From: a virus
Taxonomy: Duplodnaviria > Heunggongvirae > Uroviricota > Caudoviricetes
IMG/VR virus record: IMGVR_UViG_3300032038_000006
Direction: 5' to 3' (one strand)
Length of the DNA stretch: 64,000 nucleotides
Positions 124 through 48,904 of this stretch are shown one piece after another (position 1 is the first letter of the stretch; the number at the start of each line of letters is the position of its first letter). The position numbers and the translations under genes were made by a program. The notes beneath the pieces are model-generated. The model had not been told where the DNA came from, searched no databases, and was given only the letters and a program-made list of their open reading frames with translations.

Positions 124-1284
124 ATGAGTACAGAAATGATATATCCAAATCCTCCATAGTTCTATGGAACCGATGGAGCAACTGGATTAGTCTCATATAT
201 CGGCGGCCCTAATATCGGATATTCAGACGGCGCGCCATTCGTTTCGGCGGCACTTCCTTGGGAACCCTTCCCTACAGCAAAAACTTCTGTGCCGCCAGTC
301 AATAAAAATGAGAAGATGTGGGGTATGACTTATGGATACTTCGCAAATAGGGGCGAAATTAAATCTGCTGAGGGAATAGAATCTCAGGAGCGTATGTATA
401 AGCTCAATAATAATTGGGTTTGCTTAACAATAGTAAACTACCAAGACACATATCATTCAACTCGAATTTATGCAGACCACTTGGCAACGCCAACGGAAGG
501 CGATATTAAAGAATTTGTCAGGGCGGCACATAAACGTGGGGTTAAAGTTTGCTTAAAACCAATGGTACATTCAAGAGATAATGTCTGGAGAGCCCATATC
601 GGCTTTCCAGACCTCAATATGGATGACCTCAATGCTTATTGGGGACCTTGGTTTGAAAGCTATAAAAACTTTATTCTCAGCTATGCAGAAATAGCACAAG
701 AATGTGGAGCAGAAATGCTATGTATCGGCTGTGAAATGCTTGGTACTGAGCACCGTAAGTATGACTGGGAATATATAATTAAAGAAGTCCGTCGTGTCTA
801 TAAAGGTAAAATTGTTTATAACACTAATCATGACCATGAAGATGACCAACAATGGTTTGAGCTTTGTGATTATCTTGGTACTTCTGCTTATTATCCAGTC
901 GGGGCAGAGTACCTTGACGGACCAGTAGATAATAGCTACGGCTCTCTTGTAAAAAGATGGTGGGAAATTCGTTATCGTCTTGATGCTATTGCTAAGGACC
1001 GCGGCAAACAATTCATCTTTATGGAAGTAGGATGTCGCTCAGTAATGAATGCTTCTGCTCATCCTTGGGACTTTACAGAAAGCCTTTCATATGATGAAGA
1101 TGAACAGTTGAATTTCTATATGTCTTGTATGGAAGTATTCAAAGATGACCCGTACTTTGCTGGAGTTTTCTGGTGGGATTGGCCGACATTCTTGCCAAAG
1201 AAGCATGGCGCTGATTTCTACATAATTGATAAGAAAGCAGAAGATTATCTCCAGCAATTCTATGGAGCGATGAATAATGTCTGA
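124..1284 (+). CDS. glycoside hydrolase-like (TIM-barrel GH26/GH113-like) protein; in-frame TAG at 157
   Basis: GGGAGG RBS plus ATG at 124. ORF is continuous through the TAG into the conserved domain. The track start at 289 is a GTG with no RBS. Confidence 0.55.
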
Positions 1285-1849
1285 TTTCACAAAAAAGTTT
1301 AAATATGACATCGGGGCTGAGCCTGGTAAAAAGGCCACCCCGAAAACATATACTTTTGAACCTAATGACGGAGAAAGGAAAGCAGAAATGACCTTTGACT
1401 TTTCTAATGTTAATGGTGATGAAGATAAACAAACGGTTTATCGTTTTATTGCAACATTAACAAGAGAAAAAGTCGAAGAGCTTGTTGCACGAGAATTTGC
1501 TCGCGGCAACATTAAGGTTTCTGACTCTAATGATGTTACTTACAAATGGGAGTATCTTCCTTATCACTACAACGAAACTTGGGCAGAGTATTGCGATTTA
1601 GTAGAGCAGGGACTTATAGGTCCAGAGTTTGTTTACTTTATTTATCGTGGTTATCACGACGAATCAGGTGTTAATTACGACACTATTACTTATAATGTTT
1701 TAAAACAACGTTATCCTGTGCTTCCCGAATGGGAAGAACGTCCTAAAGAACCTAATATGAATGAATTAATATATAAGATTGGTGTTTTGGAAAGACGAGC
1801 TGCTAATTTGGAAGATGCAATACTTGATGGAGAGAAAAGTCAATCTTAA
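1277..1849 (+). CDS. hypothetical protein
   Basis: ORF; ATG overlaps the upstream stop. Confidence 0.5.
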   Translation: MSDFTKKFKYDIGAEPGKKATPKTYTFEPNDGERKAEMTFDFSNVNGDEDKQTVYRFIATLTREKVEELVAREFARGNIKVSDSNDVTYKWEYLPYHYNETWAEYCDLVEQGLIGPEFVYFIYRGYHDESGVNYDTITYNVLKQRYPVLPEWEERPKEPNMNELIYKIGVLERRAANLEDAILDGEKSQS

Positions 1850-1853
1850 ATGA

Positions 1854-1882
1854 TTGACTTTTTCTTTTTCTTGTGGTATAAT
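1854..1882 (+). promoter_or_regulatory. sigma70-like promoter
   Basis: TTGACT n17 TATAAT, TGn. Confidence 0.6.
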
Positions 1883-1915
1883 GTTTACAGTAATCAAATT
1901 GGAGGAGAGGTATGA

Positions 1916-3034
1916 ATGAATTTTAATGAAAGACAAAAGAAAGTTATTTATGCTCAAGAGCCTAAAATACTATGCCTCGCAACCGCAGCTTGCGGAAAGA
2001 CAAGAGTTTTAACTGAGAGGATTCGAGTTTTAATAGAAGAAAAAAATGTTCTTCCACCAGATATTGTTGCAATATCATTTACTAATATGGCAGCCGATGA
2101 AATGAAACGTCGTATAGGCGGGGCGGCATCGGGAGCTTTTATTGGTACTATTCATTCTTATGGTAATAAGATTTGCACTATTAATGGTATTGATACTCAA
2201 AAATATCTTGATGATTATGACTTTGATGCTATCCTTCTAAGGGCAGTAAAGATACCTTCTTCAAAGTTTCCTAAGATTAAGCATTTACTTATTGATGAGT
2301 GTCAGGATTTAAGCCCTCTGGAATATCAATTTTTAATGAAAATTCCAACAGAAAATATCTTTTTCGTAGGAGATAACAGACAAGCTATTTACGGCTTCCG
2401 AGGTTGTACAGATGAATATCTAATTTCTATGTGGAAAGATACCGATTTCAAAAAATATTACTTAACTGAAAACTATCGCAATGCGCCAAACATTGTTCGC
2501 TTTGCAGAAAGCTTCTTGGACTCTTATACAAAGTTAAGCCCAAGTTCAATGCCAGTTAAGACGAGGGTGGGTATTCTTGAAGGAAAAGAAGAACGTATGC
2601 CGTTTATTGAAGCTCTTGAAGAACTGGAACTTTCACAGAACTGGGGCTCTTGGTTTATATTAACAAGAACCAACAATGAGCTTGCGGCGGCACAAGATAT
2701 TTTAAACAGTAGAAAAATTCCAAATGTCACCTTTAAAAAGGGAGACCTTGATTTGGATGAACTCGCGGCACTTTTAACAAGTAATCGTGTTAAGGTTCTC
2801 ACCATTCATTCAGCTAAAGGTCTTGAAAATAAAAACGTAATTGTTACAGGCGCACGTCTCTATAATGAAGAGGAACGTAAAATCTCATACGTCGCAGCAA
2901 CAAGAGCAGAGAACGCATTATACTGGTGTAATGCTATCGCTCCAAGAACTAAGAAAGGTCATAGAGCACTTCCGAAATCAGCCGAGGCGGGCAGAATCTT
3001 TGATAAGTCCACCACGGAGATGATTGAGTTTTGA
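1916..3034 (+). CDS. UvrD/PcrA-like SF1 helicase (short form)
   Basis: Motifs AACGKT, LIDECQDL, GDNRQAIYGFRG, NYRNAPNI, TIHSAKGLE, VAATRAEN. Confidence 0.7.
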   Translation: MNFNERQKKVIYAQEPKILCLATAACGKTRVLTERIRVLIEEKNVLPPDIVAISFTNMAADEMKRRIGGAASGAFIGTIHSYGNKICTINGIDTQKYLDDYDFDAILLRAVKIPSSKFPKIKHLLIDECQDLSPLEYQFLMKIPTENIFFVGDNRQAIYGFRGCTDEYLISMWKDTDFKKYYLTENYRNAPNIVRFAESFLDSYTKLSPSSMPVKTRVGILEGKEERMPFIEALEELELSQNWGSWFILTRTNNELAAAQDILNSRKIPNVTFKKGDLDLDELAALLTSNRVKVLTIHSAKGLENKNVIVTGARLYNEEERKISYVAATRAENALYWCNAIAPRTKKGHRALPKSAEAGRIFDKSTTEMIEF

Positions 3035-3531
3035 AAACGAAAGTATTATGTGATAATGAGGATTATGTAATAGAAATCGCTCTCGCGGCGCATATGGCTT
3101 TGGTAGAATGTAAAACTCCGATGTTTAATTTATCAGAAGGAGAAAAAGTTATTCTACTTGCTTTAGTCAAAAAGCAATTAAGAGAAGCGGGGTTTAAAGT
3201 AGATATTCCTACTGAATACTTCGCACAGGTCCCTATAATAGAGCCACGCACCTTTATTGGTTTAGCTGAGCCATTTGACGTGTTTGCGGTAGCATTAAAT
3301 TACTTATCCACATATGATGATTTAAGTAATCCAGATGATTACCTTGAAATTCTCGAAGAACTAAAGGAGCTTTATTCTGAACAAGAAATAATAAAAGGTG
3401 TAGTTTACACAGCTATTTTCCATACTCCAGTAAGAGGGGTTCGAGGATACTGTGCTCACATCACCGAAGAAAAATTAAGAATTGTCTTTTGGGGCTTCGA
3501 TGATTTAATTGAAAATGATATTTCAGTATGA
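3031..3531 (+). CDS. hypothetical protein (TTG start; alternative ATG at 3094)
   Basis: ORF only. Confidence 0.4.
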   Translation: MKTKVLCDNEDYVIEIALAAHMALVECKTPMFNLSEGEKVILLALVKKQLREAGFKVDIPTEYFAQVPIIEPRTFIGLAEPFDVFAVALNYLSTYDDLSNPDDYLEILEELKELYSEQEIIKGVVYTAIFHTPVRGVRGYCAHITEEKLRIVFWGFDDLIENDISV

Positions 3532-47704: not shown

Positions 47705-47752
47705 TGCGATAGTAAATATCGCACCTTCTGCATTTCTTAACAAAAGAAAGAT

Positions 47753-47781
47753 TTGACATTTTCTATAAAGTATGTTATAAT
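47753..47781 (+). promoter_or_regulatory. sigma70-like promoter driving the tmRNA
   Basis: TTGACA n17 TATAAT; tmRNA 5' end 19 nt downstream. Confidence 0.65.
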
Positions 47782-47799
47782 ATTTATAGAAAATGAAAT

Positions 47800-48143
47800 G
47801 GGGGCGTAAAGGTTTCGACAGATTTCTGAGTTCCCTATCTGCAAGCGGACGGCAACCATATAGCCACTTTTAAATATAAACGCAGATTATGCAATCGCTG
47901 CCTGAGCAGCACTATTGATACAGTTATAACAGTTTACTAATAAAGAAGGGCTTTATAACATAATATTATTCTTTATTCTCTACATTGGCTTGGTGACATT
48001 GTAGTAGTATTAATGACCAATACGGCTCCGTCATTCGTGAACCCGAAAGAGCACGGCGGCAAGAGAACAGGGTCGGGTATTCTAAGCTTGTAGACGATAG
48101 ATATGACGAGGTTTGGACAGGAGTTCGATTCTCCTCGCCTCCA
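47800..48143 (+). ncRNA. ssrA: tmRNA (ssrA) transcribed from a phage-type promoter; tag reading frame ends ...ADYAIAA then TGA
   Basis: 5' end GGGGGCGTAAAGGTTTCGAC. 3' end GGACAGGAGTTCGATTCTCCTCGCCTCCA pairs with the 5' end and carries a T-arm. Internal GCAGATTATGCAATCGCTGCCTGA. CCA is not encoded. Confidence 0.75.
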
Positions 48144-48217
48144 GGTCGGTGACAGAAAACCCTCCACGCGGGACCGACTGGGCAACGTTATACGGCAAAT
48201 TTTCTGTGAGGTGTATT

Positions 48218-48904
48218 ATGGGAATAATATATAAAATAACTAATTTAATTAATAGAAAAGCTTATATAGGATAGACAAGAATGTCCTTAAAAGCCAGAAT
48301 GTATAAACATTATTCTCACTCTAAAGAAGAAGGCGTAACAGGAATTGACGCTGCGATAGGAAAATATGGAAAAGAAAATTTTCTTATAGAAGTTATCGAA
48401 GAATGTGACGACTCTTTATTAGATGAAAGAGAAAGATACTATATTGAATTGTATTCTACTTATGCCAACTATGGGAAAGGATATAATTTAACATTAGGCG
48501 GACAAGATGGCTTAGGCTCATTAAGACAATTTACTATTGAAGAAGTAAATGATGCTCTTTCAAAAGGTGGAAGTATTAAGGTGGCTTCATAGCTATTAAA
48601 ATGTGCAGAAAGGACTCTATCTTCCTTTATGAAAAAGAATGGCATTAAAACTCCTTATAAAAGTAAGGGGAGAGTTGAAAATATCCTTAATAAGGGAAGA
48701 TAGTTTAAAGAAGGAGACTACGTAAAACCTGTTTACTGTAAAGAATTAGACAAGTCTTTTCCTTCTTTAAAAGATTGTGCTTAGTTTTTAATAGATAACG
48801 GTTATTCTAAAGCATCATCTATGGAAGCTGCACGAAAAGGATTAAGCAGACATTTAACAGGAGGTCGGCAGAGTTATCTACGAATGCATTTTGAGTATTT
48901 GTAA
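48218..48904 (+). CDS. GIY-YIG homing endonuclease with C-terminal DNA-binding modules; in-frame TAG at 48272, 48590, 48701, 48782
   Basis: GIIYKITN..YIG[TAG]T, then ...YNLTLGG. AT-rich. Continuous only if TAG is sense. Confidence 0.55.

Follow-up and report, generated by a model that had tools for sequence, protein, structure and literature searches.

A gut-type phage genome of about 181 kb, part of which is covered by the 64,000-nucleotide stretch analysed here (the window), very probably uses genetic code 15, with TAG translated as glutamine as the best explanation of its sequence. TAG recoding with phage-encoded suppressors is already well documented, including in large Firmicutes phages, and the present case is a further genome. 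The window is promoter-dense, contains tRNA, RNA-repair and nucleotide-metabolism genes, among them 46 tRNA genes and a tmRNA, and has 23 in-frame TAG codons in 14 of its approximately 106 genes. The gene caller of the public collection already reads these genes through TAG. No record in a 50,697-record phage collection was similar to the window beyond the tRNA genes, and in the 82 kb of the genome examined neither a terminase nor a release-factor gene (RF2 included) or RF1 antagonist was seen.

The decisive evidence is a tandem pair of tRNA(CUA) genes at 17015-17170. An earlier note on this DNA, made from the letters alone, did not mention them. The pair, its putative promoter and the glutamine tRNAs used for comparison are as follows.

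16889..16917, + strand: candidate consensus host-type promoter, TTGACA-N18 with TG-TATAAT, read directly from the sequence
17015..17090, + strand: amber suppressor tRNA(CUA), class A (ARAGORN; Rfam tRNA 53.4 bits versus gathering 29)
17094..17170, + strand: amber suppressor tRNA(CUA), class B (ARAGORN; Rfam tRNA 53.6 bits)
15724..15797, + strand: tRNA-Gln(UUG), the phage's cognate glutamine tRNA (U1-A72, A73)
54090..54163, + strand: tRNA-Gln(CUG), whose loop CUCUGAA is one base from that of the class B suppressor

Both suppressors form ordinary cloverleaves, with 5 bp anticodon stems, GG in D-loops of 9-11 nt, TTCGA T-loops and variable loops of 4-5 nt. Class A has U1-A72, A73 and the anticodon arm ACGGA-CUCUAAC-UCCGU, and is kept in the relatives L022, L024, L038 and L043. 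Class B, kept in L022, L038 and L043, shares U1-A72, U2-A71, C3-G70 and A73 with the phage's own tRNA-Gln genes; in D-arm and loop it agrees with the tRNA-Gln(CUG) of relative L040, and its anticodon loop, CUCUAAA, is that of tRNA-Gln(CUG) with G36 changed to A. Isotype HMMs were built, with the anticodon masked, from tRNAs of this phage group, in a set without Trp and Tyr models; the Gln model scored 29.3 for class A (next isotype 17.8) and 25.7 for class B (next isotype 18.3), and in leave-one-out trials 1 of 131 non-Gln tRNAs was miscalled Gln. Both tRNAs are Gln-type by body sequence, and their charging with glutamine is predicted from this resemblance; as discriminator they have A73, whereas E. 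coli tRNA-Gln has G73. Because the phage carries two tRNA(CUA) genes, a host suppressor would be unnecessary. Among the relatives, a class B version with a long variable arm occurs in L023 and a tRNA-Tyr-like suppressor in L050.

The E. coli supE-type amber suppressors are tRNA-Gln with anticodon CUA, and their design is the one seen here: a tRNA-Gln(CUG) body with base 36 changed from G to A, UAG being read and Gln inserted. supE, however, is weak and chromosomal, and TAG is still a stop in the cell, whereas in the present genome it is the phage that encodes the suppressors, and TAG is a systematic codon, accounting in some genes for as much as 43% of the Gln-like codons. The consensus element lies about 100 nt upstream of the tandem suppressors and probably functions as their promoter; perfect TTGAC-N18-TATAAT matches with extended -10 number 37, against 0.05 expected, which bears out the Gram-positive-type signals proposed in the earlier note.

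Comparison with relatives supports the reading of TAG as a sense codon, with glutamine as the best-fitting residue. Among relatives with 60% identity or more, the codons opposite TAG were TAG (30), Gln (15), Glu (3), His (3), and Ser, Asn, Asp and Trp (one each). When likelihoods were compared across 44 TAG sites, Gln was best, as had been proposed, and Glu, the second, was 39 ln units worse. Glu stands opposite TAG 13849 and two TAGs of an upstream 85-codon gene, His opposite 12805 and Trp opposite 36870. The TAGs of the window recur in relatives assembled independently from other samples, or CAA or CAG stands in their place, and in-frame stops inside alignments to relatives are nearly all TAG, with few TAA or TGA.

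From the letters alone, at least 11 continuous genes with in-frame TAG had been claimed, with strong ribosome binding sites and ATG starts and with domains continuing across TAG. This is upheld: AGGAGG-type sites and ATG starts are present, a Pfam search recovers Thy1, AAA_28 and GIY-YIG each as a single stretch, and the TAGs lie where they had been placed, in the 14 genes listed here.

124..1284, + strand: GH113-family gene; TAG 157 is codon 12, Pfam GH113 spans residues 68-363
5813..6562, + strand: ThyX gene; TAG 5975 is codon 55, Thy1 is one stretch (residues 17-183) spanning X55
6559..7590, + strand: gene with a coiled-coil N-terminus and GIY-YIG (residues 252-333); TAGs 6673, 7015 and 7105
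8754..9086, + strand: 110-codon gene; TAG 8826 internal, TAG 9066 six codons before TGA
10896..11348, + strand: 150-codon gene; TAG 11001 (CAG, CAA and CAG in three relatives)
12784..13308, + strand: gene of a proline-rich 174-residue protein; TAG 12805
13408..14001, + strand: P-loop kinase-like gene (AAA_28); TAGs 13486, 13576 and 13849
19847..20095, + strand: candidate small 82-codon ORF; TAG 20075 six codons before TAA
26460..27839, + strand: 459-codon gene of unknown function; TAGs 26487 and 26628
36082..36537, + strand: 151-codon gene; TAG 36169 (CAG in L037, 95% identical; CAA in L040)
36540..36968, + strand: 142-codon gene; TAG 36870, elsewhere Trp
46991..47740, + strand: 249-codon gene; TAG 47702, 12 codons before TAA, kept as TAG in L037
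48218..48904, + strand: GIY-YIG homing-endonuclease-like gene; TAGs 48272, 48590, 48701 and 48782
48947..49252, + strand: 101-codon gene (phrog_1479); TAG 49244 two codons before TGA

Codon 55 of ThyX is Gln in 19 of 21 ThyX loci, and the pooled column holds Gln 21 times and Asn twice. The AAA_28 match of the kinase-like gene is unbroken over residues 9-156 and spans X27, X57 and X148, codons that are CAA, CAG and GAA in the 92% relative L022. The gene at 48218..48904 begins 75 nt past the 3' end of the tmRNA (48143), behind a visible GAGG ribosome binding site; its GIY-YIG match takes in residues 1-81, X19 among them, and most relatives have Gln in its YIG-x-T column. The other GIY-YIG gene (6559..7590) is read through in L050 and L051 with the sense codons CAA, TTT and CGC, and keeps TAG in L049 and L048. 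The GH113 gene, also offered as an example of a domain read across TAG, stands in part: its TAG precedes the Pfam domain, which begins at residue 68, but its N-terminus is coding. Codon 12 is CAG in L047 and TAG in L049, the alignments are gap-free, and the first 69 codons have mismatches by codon position of 3/2/11 and 6/4/17 in two relatives, so that, judged by substitution pattern, they evolve as coding sequence under purifying selection on both sides of the TAG.

Elsewhere the counterparts are more varied. TAG 12805 is TAG in L022 and CAT or CAC in L023, L024 and L048; TAGs 26487 and 26628 are both kept in L022 and L023, and the alignment to L024 continues across them, the codons there being AAT and TAT. 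TAG 36870 is TGG in L037 (92%), with W in the adjacent paralog (36970-37395), and is either a truncation or a TGG codon that recently became TAG and is read as Gln. The standing of 19847..20095 as a gene and the function of TAG 20075 in it are uncertain.

The 127 called stops comprise 99 TAA and 28 TGA. The claim of the earlier note that no gene ends in TAG holds at 146 orthologous stop positions, where relatives have TAG at none and interchange TAA and TGA at 7, but it is affected by gene calls that presuppose TAG to be sense and by the ambiguity of TAGs near gene ends. Five TAGs fall in the last 12 codons of genes in the 82 kb (four in the window, 2-12 codons before the called stop, and a fifth downstream of it), against 5.5 expected if evenly spread, and individually they are therefore not separable from stops. 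The sole reverse case is 9066: both TAGs of its gene are kept in L049, but the L048 codon that aligns with 9066 is TAA, so this TAG occupies an ancestral stop position. TAG 47702, contained in a hairpin of -21.7 kcal/mol (z = -4.7), may be a stop or a sense codon, and so may TAG 49244. The near-end TAGs, 9066 included, could act as stops early in infection.

Recoding had been described as extending across this genome; TAG is a sense codon, but its use is tenfold uneven, the window being TAG-poor and the block just upstream TAG-rich. There are 1.4 TAGs per 1000 codons in the window versus 15 in the upstream block, and TAG contributes 4.6% versus 43% of Gln-like codons (Fisher p = 2e-19). When these genes are read in their other two frames, the TAG counts of the two blocks are of similar order. 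Large genes of unknown function make up the TAG-rich block; some carry 8-21 TAGs as well as TAG-TAG pairs, as in a 944-codon gene that has 21 TAGs including two such pairs. Further upstream, in the 95-96% relative L058, an endolysin gene (with TAG inside its Amidase_2 domain), a holin-like gene and a collagen-repeat fibre-like gene all bear TAG. A consensus promoter also stands at the TAG-rich block just upstream, so the "late" timing that we infer for it does not come from promoter type.

In the pathway envisaged, host RNA polymerase would transcribe the suppressor tRNAs and the large tRNA array after infection, and host enzymes would charge the suppressors with glutamine, via either GlnRS or GluRS and GatCAB, U1-A72 being the identity element for GatCAB. 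The suppressors would then out-compete release factor 1, full-length protein from TAG-containing genes would appear only once suppressors have accumulated, and TAG-dense genes would be delayed most. For the 944-codon gene, 90% read-through per codon would leave about 11% of chains complete, and suppression would therefore need to be near complete.

It is unlikely that TAG, though sense, is read ambiguously or as another residue (Glu, from a GluRS-charged tRNA left untransamidated; Leu, Tyr or Trp, from a suppressor with a different ancestry), in which case the two suppressor classes might differ. Two structurally distinct classes do lie in tandem, Glu stands opposite three TAGs (in relatives with 92% identity or more) and Trp opposite one, the variant suppressors of L023 and L050 would fit, and the window has no tRNA-Trp. 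Yet both window suppressors score best as Gln, by margins of 7-11 bits, and over the 44 sites every alternative to Gln is worse by 39 ln units or more; exchanges of Gln with Glu or His are conservative, and GAG, TGG and TAT are one mutational step from TAG, so that rare pairings are expected. Quite improbable is a dual use in which TAG still ends a few early-region genes (9066, 20075, 47702, 49244), with partial suppression and regulated read-through. The four near-end TAGs of the window, the TAA of L048 and the placing of TAG 47702 in a strong hairpin, the usual place of a terminator, are what such use might produce, but near-end TAGs do not exceed the even expectation, relatives have no TAG at the stops orthologous to a window TAA or TGA, and the genes with many TAGs and TAG-TAG pairs require near-complete decoding.

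That the TAGs are pseudogene nonsense mutations, or errors of assembly or sequencing, is scarcely credible: nothing specific favours it, apart from TAG 36870, which replaces a conserved Trp and could be one, whereas identical TAGs turn up in assemblies made independently from other samples, TAG far exceeds TAA and TGA as an in-frame stop in alignments, domains run on across TAGs, selection is purifying on either side of the GH113 TAG, and cognate suppressor tRNAs are present. Extremely improbable, too, is decoding by the host (a recoded host, or pyrrolysine machinery) that the phage merely matches. ARAGORN labels the tRNAs "Pyl", a result of the CUA anticodon; tRNA-Pyl has a characteristic architecture that differs from the ordinary cloverleaf, and the two tRNA(CUA) are ordinary cloverleaves. 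The residues opposite TAG are Gln, not Lys, and the Pfam hits on record include neither PylS nor a PylBCD family. TAG use is, moreover, tenfold uneven within one genome, and Borges et al. (10.1101/2021.08.26.457843) regard such unevenness as the signature of a standard-code host.

Translation of TAG as glutamine is known from the code 15 gut phages, which include crAss-like and Lak phages and the Jade, Sapphire, Agate, Garnet and Amethyst clades (Borges et al., bioRxiv 10.1101/2021.08.26.457843; Peters et al. 2022, PMC9523058). In those phages TAG aligns with Gln, a tRNA(CUA) is phage-encoded, recoding affects part of the genes and is highest in structural and lysis genes, predicted hosts are standard-code Firmicutes or Bacteroidetes, genomes are 150-210 kb in several clades, and the code switches between close relatives (10.1101/2021.08.26.457843; PMC9523058). 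These traits are also seen here, a likeness in recoding and not a clade placement; the present phage differs in having a consensus sigma-A promoter ahead of a tandem pair of Gln-type suppressors, in the 46 tRNA genes and tmRNA of the window, and in the lack of RF2 in 82 kb. Another large gut phage, phAss-1 (OQ749652; proposed genus Phassvirus, NCBI taxon "Caudoviricetes code 15 clade"), has a 136 kb genome, compared with about 181 kb here, with 36 tRNA genes, and three tRNA-SUP-CTA genes to which tRNAscan-SE assigns Gln; 28% of its open reading frames contain TAG, its predicted hosts are Clostridia, and no phage-encoded aminoacyl-tRNA synthetase was identified that would serve the suppressor tRNAs (Babkin et al. 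2023, PMC10607447). Its nucleotide similarity to the window is at the tRNA level only (3% coverage), and the hits included neither its ThyX nor its Ro-like genes; phAss-1 therefore belongs to a different lineage.

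With TAA and TGA alone taken as stops, 23 in-frame TAGs lie within 14 of the ~106 genes of the window. The earlier note, made from the sequence alone, had read TAG as a sense codon and had described strong ribosome binding sites followed by ATG at the starts of the TAG-bearing genes; both claims are borne out, AGGAGG-like sites and ATG being found at the gene starts. The domains that it had named continue across the TAGs when these are translated as sense: the Thy1 Pfam match (residues 17-183) runs in one stretch over TAG codon 55, the AAA_28 match (residues 9-156) over codons 27, 57 and 148, and the GIY-YIG match (residues 1-81) over codon 19. 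Alignments with orthologs continue through 44 TAG sites. The GH113 gene, also offered as an example, holds in part. Its TAG is codon 12, outside the Pfam domain, which begins at residue 68, but comparison of the N-terminal 69 codons with two relatives gives mismatches by codon position of 3/2/11 and 6/4/17 with no gaps, and the TAG codon is CAG in one relative; it follows that this stretch is coding in the frame of the gene before and after the TAG. The gene caller of the public collection already reads through TAG, giving for instance 197 residues for the kinase and 386 for GH113.

The relatives used in these comparisons were found by IMG/VR scans, and comprise a 122 kb contig of ~92% nucleotide identity (loci L022, L037, L049), a 33 kb contig (L047, L058) whose proteins are 92-99% identical, loci at 75-80% (L023, L048, L024) and many others more distant. 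Identical TAGs recur in independent assemblies, those at 26487 and 26628 in L022 and L023, and those at 6673 and 7015 in L049 and L048, which excludes sequencing error. The in-frame stops of relatives inside the alignments are nearly all TAG, with few TAA or TGA. Pseudogenes or sequencing errors as the source of the TAGs are thus contradicted both by their recurrence in relatives and by the domains that continue across them. Total ORF length with each stop made sense in turn does not discriminate, because any removed stop lengthens frames, and TAA most.

The residue proposed earlier, Gln, is also the modal residue in the aligned columns. In relatives of at least 60% identity, the codons aligned with TAG are TAG itself (30), Gln (15; CAA 8, CAG 7), Glu (3), His (3) and one each of Ser, Asn, Asp and Trp, and in more distant relatives the leading residues are Gln (49), Glu (19), Lys (11) and Leu (11). 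A likelihood comparison, with a substitution profile derived from these alignments and every TAG site weighted as one, ranked Gln best over the 44 sites, with Glu second and 39 ln units worse. Six columns are conserved, having at least three relatives and at least 70% agreement, and Gln occupies four: ThyX codon 55 (Gln 21, Asn 2), kinase codon 57, codon 36 of the gene at 10896 and codon 39 of the gene at 6559. The other two hold His (12805) and Glu (kinase codon 148), and most of the remaining exceptions lie one mutational step from TAG (GAG, TGG and TAT, for example). Searched with phmmer, ThyX matched no PDB sequence from which its TAG column could be read structurally. Taken together, these comparisons support the interpretation of the earlier note that TAG would be decoded as Gln.

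That note, whose observation and interpretation both stand, had not cited two tRNA genes with a CUA anticodon, which are separated by three bases:

17015-17090, + strand: amber suppressor tRNA(CUA), class A; called by ARAGORN; Rfam tRNA score 53.4 bits (gathering score 29)
17094-17170, + strand: amber suppressor tRNA(CUA), class B; called by ARAGORN; Rfam tRNA score 53.6 bits (gathering score 29)

Each forms an ordinary cloverleaf, with a TTCGA T-loop and GG in the D-loop, and each carries U1-A72 and A73, as do the phage tRNA-Gln(UUG) and tRNA-Gln(CUG). The class B anticodon loop, CUCUAAA, differs only at base 36 from the tRNA-Gln(CUG) loop CUCUGAA, and the class B D-arm matches that of the tRNA-Gln(CUG) of the related locus L040; the single suppressor of L040 has a D-arm identical to that of the tRNA-Gln(UUG) of another relative, L038. 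Global pairwise similarity to all tRNAs was uninformative as to isotype, and isotype HMMs were used instead, built from 144 non-redundant tRNAs of this phage group with the anticodon masked, Trp and Tyr having too few tRNAs for a model. Gln scored highest for class A (29.3; next isotype 17.8) and for class B (25.7; next isotype 18.3); in leave-one-out trials 12 of 13 Gln tRNAs were recovered as Gln, with one false Gln among 131 non-Gln tRNAs. Gln identity is therefore favoured for both suppressors, as far as their sequences can tell. Both classes are kept in L022, L038 and L043, and a perfect TTGACA-N18-TATAAT promoter with a TG extension (16889-16917) lies ~100 nt upstream of the pair. Suppressors elsewhere in the group are more varied: one in L023 (3600-3693) combines the D-arm and anticodon arm of class B with a variable arm of 22 nt, a 94 nt tRNA(CUA) in L050 (20311-20404) has acceptor and T arms like those of the window tRNA-Tyr (53995-54083), and a G1-C72 suppressor in L034 (12825-12900) scores about equally as Lys and as Gln.

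Several other accounts of the TAGs were weighed. The 'Pyl' label given by ARAGORN merely follows the CUA anticodon. A tRNA-Pyl has a 6 bp anticodon stem, a 3 nt variable loop, a small D-loop without GG and an atypical T-loop; neither suppressor has this architecture and the residues aligned with TAG are Gln, where Lys-like or Pyl-specific sites would be expected, so pyrrolysine decoding was rejected, and the pylS and pylBCD families are absent from the Pfam matches on record for the called genes. A recoded host that itself decodes TAG is contradicted by the analysis. The base that follows TAG (A 23, G 21, T 20, C 8) resembles that after CAG codons and bears no mark of a programmed read-through context. 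The base before it, over all 72 TAGs between window positions -7519 and 68639, is T in 38, A in 25, G in 9 and never C, an avoidance of the tetranucleotide CTAG. Decoding as Gln need not be the whole story, in that the window phage has two different Gln-type suppressor bodies, the sister phage L023 has a class B body with a long variable arm and L050 a tRNA-Tyr-like tRNA(CUA), and some TAGs occupy positions of Glu, of Trp or of an ancestral stop. On these grounds its decoding could be ambiguous or could differ between sister phages, or TAG could be a stop early in infection and a codon late. It is unlikely that the meaning or handling of TAG differs across the phage group, and very unlikely that its decoding is ambiguous or other than Gln.

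A residual role of TAG as a stop was considered with the gene ends. The called stops are TAA (99) and TGA (28), calls that presuppose a sense TAG. Five TAGs fall within 12 codons of a gene end (9066, 20075, 47702, 49244 and one downstream of the window), against 5.5 expected if the 72 were spread uniformly. Two of these look like stops: that at 9066 aligns with a TAA in L048, and that at 47702 lies within a terminator-like hairpin (-21.7 kcal/mol, z = -4.7) just before the tmRNA promoter. However, in 146 ortholog comparisons of window stops there were 133 with TAA or TGA and seven TAA-TGA interchanges, and TAG was found in none. TAG is probably at most a rare, leaky terminator, and a residual stop function is very unlikely. 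The statement of the earlier note that no confidently called gene ends in TAG is probably right, with less certainty for the four window genes that have a TAG near their end. A speculative role for the phage tmRNA (47800-48143) would be the rescue of ribosomes that have run past a TAG stop of the host.

The use of TAG is markedly uneven along the genome, the more TAG-rich genes lying just upstream of the window and, further upstream, in the 95-96% relative L058:

Window: TAG 1.4 per 1000 codons; 4.6% of TAG + CAA + CAG
Five genes just upstream (window -7519 to 19): TAG 15 per 1000 codons; 43% of TAG + CAA + CAG
L058, further upstream: collagen-repeat protein (fibre-like), 1063 residues, 4 TAGs
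L058, further upstream: Amidase_2 endolysin, 3 TAGs, one within the domain
L058, further upstream: small holin-like membrane protein, 1 TAG
L058, further upstream: 1108-residue protein, 15 TAGs

The difference in density between the window and the upstream block is significant (Fisher p = 2e-19); when these genes are read in their other two frames, both blocks give TAG counts of a similar order. One upstream gene of 944 codons holds 21 TAGs, including two TAG-TAG pairs. Fifteen minus-strand genes were called beyond the downstream end of the window; two of them hold TAGs, an HNH endonuclease gene (4 TAGs) and a 99-codon gene (2 TAGs), and the other 13 hold none. The TAG-rich upstream proteins and several window proteins matched no PHROGs family, and a tblastn search of phages with the 735-residue protein gave no match; a fibre-like role for the TAG-rich upstream proteins is suggested solely by their neighbours in L058. 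The recoded codons thus appear concentrated in structural and lysis genes, which would be expressed late. This distribution is that described by Borges et al. (bioRxiv 10.1101/2021.08.26.457843), in which lysis and structural genes are recoded and other modules variably so. Homing-endonuclease-like genes are among the most TAG-rich of the early region (48218-48904, 6559-7590 and, on the minus strand of the downstream flank, 68124-68639), with four TAGs in the 228 codons of the GIY-YIG gene at 48218 and four in the 171 of the HNH gene at 68124-68639 (minus), and the endonuclease genes at 14558-15199 and 55861-56574 have none.

The Gram-positive-type promoters noted earlier are abundant: the + strand of the window has 37 perfect TTGAC-N18-TATAAT sequences where 0.05 would be expected. 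At about one per 1.7 kb, these host-type promoters divide the region into a succession of short transcription units. They span positions 1854-61880 (for example 9115, 11516, 24549, 32830 and 39945) and have a TG extension and an A-rich upstream stretch. At eight of the 37, a hairpin (GTCAA...TTGAC) has the -35 hexamer as its 3' arm and is followed by a T run, so that a terminator overlaps the next promoter. The 11 kb of L058 that carry the TAG-rich genes have no consensus promoter except one at the junction.

TAG-to-Gln recoding with a phage-encoded tRNA(CUA) is already established, and the window genome adds an example. Such recoding is widespread in gut phages, including clades of 150-210 kb, with Firmicutes and Bacteroidetes hosts predicted; partial recoding is biased to late genes, and the code changes between close relatives (bioRxiv 10.1101/2021.08.26.457843). 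In crAss-like phages the assignment was validated by metaproteomics (Peters et al. 2022, PMC9523058), and phAss-1 has 36 tRNAs with three Gln-type tRNA-SUP-CTA genes (PMC10607447). The combination with a phage tRNA(CUA) is common in jumbo phages, and the NCBI taxonomy holds a 'Caudoviricetes code 15 clade'. None of these phages is close to the window genome at the nucleotide level. No release factor family is among the Pfam matches within the 82 kb of window plus flanks; since RF2 occurs in only a few recoded phage genomes (Borges et al., bioRxiv 10.1101/2021.08.26.457843), a missing RF2 does not disqualify the phage from the code 15 group. The standard code would break at least 14 window genes, all five genes of the TAG-rich upstream block, and the endolysin, holin-like and collagen-repeat fibre-like genes of the 95-96% relative, and the genome therefore needs translation table 15. 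Knowledge of genetic-code variation is unchanged by this genome. As an example it offers an amber suppressor pair, probably derived from tRNA-Gln, behind a host-type promoter, a sharp boundary between TAG-poor and TAG-rich modules, and swaps of TAG with CAG, CAA and GAG between relatives at 92-96% identity, a system usable for testing whether recoding times late-gene translation.

The window is part of a large phage genome, contig k141_101128 (180,954 bp) of ENA assembly ERZ27256903, in which record position 13,944 is window position 1. The 64 kb have a G+C content of 40%, and all their genes and RNAs lie on the + strand. None of the 50,697 records of a phage collection resembled the genome except at tRNA genes: megablast with window positions 22000-46000 gave no match, and more sensitive blastn with the tRNA region gave tRNA-level matches only. 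Protein families on record or found in the window include a DUF2828 Ro/TROVE-like RNA-binding protein, two RNA ligases, a polynucleotide-kinase-like kinase-plus-HD protein, a nucleotidyltransferase, ThyX, a UvrD-type helicase, GH113, a cell-wall hydrolase and several GIY-YIG or PD-(D/E)XK endonucleases. The cell-wall hydrolase matched bacterial genomes at 49% only, on contigs binned to Oscillospiraceae and Candidatus Fimenecus MAGs, a weak hint that the host may belong to the Clostridia. One 49% relative of the hydrolase is encoded by L056 (JAZNZX010000038.1, 184,272 bp, binned as Candidatus Fimenecus sp.), a contig of nearly the size of the window phage genome, which may for that reason be a related phage placed in the wrong bin rather than DNA of the host.

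ARAGORN called 46 tRNA genes and one tmRNA gene in the window, and the tmRNA and 45 of the 46 tRNAs pass the Rfam gathering score. The tRNA genes lie in three arrays, all on the + strand (15724-21371, 51045-55438 and 59440-60672), and cover all amino acids but Trp, tRNA(CCA) being absent from the window among the ARAGORN-called tRNAs. Four tRNAs with Leu anticodons (18653-18729, 20182-20258, 20866-20942 and 59440-59516) are 77 nt long and do not have the long variable arm expected in a bacterial tRNA-Leu, and some Leu tRNAs of the relatives L023 and L024 are 83-93 nt. A tRNA-Cys(GCA) of 91 nt (51300-51390) and a tRNA-Asn(GUU) of 86 nt (51992-52077) have long extra arms that are odd for their isotypes, and both are above the Rfam tRNA threshold. 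The tmRNA (92 bits in Rfam) encodes the tag peptide ADYAIAA in a frame that stops at TGA, and has its own consensus promoter at 47753-47781; the GIY-YIG endonuclease gene starts 75 nt 3' of it. Genes for RNA repair and tRNA maintenance are interspersed with the tRNA arrays (11793-12698, 22180-23643, 25628-26470, 27956-28366, 29695-30627 and 41245-42375), and comprise the PNK-like kinase-plus-HD protein, the Ro/TROVE-like DUF2828 protein with a VWA domain, the nucleotidyltransferase, a 136-residue protein matching the AlaRS family tRNA-synt_2c, an Rnl2-like ligase and an Rnl1-like ligase. The gene at 31224-32801 has 32 CAA or CAG codons and no TAG; it encodes an SPFH/Band_7 protein of 525 residues whose C-terminus is flotillin-like. 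Positions 36540-36968 and 36970-37395 encode tandem paralogs, both small membrane proteins, and the TAG at 36870 in the first corresponds to Trp in the second and to TGG in the L037 ortholog.
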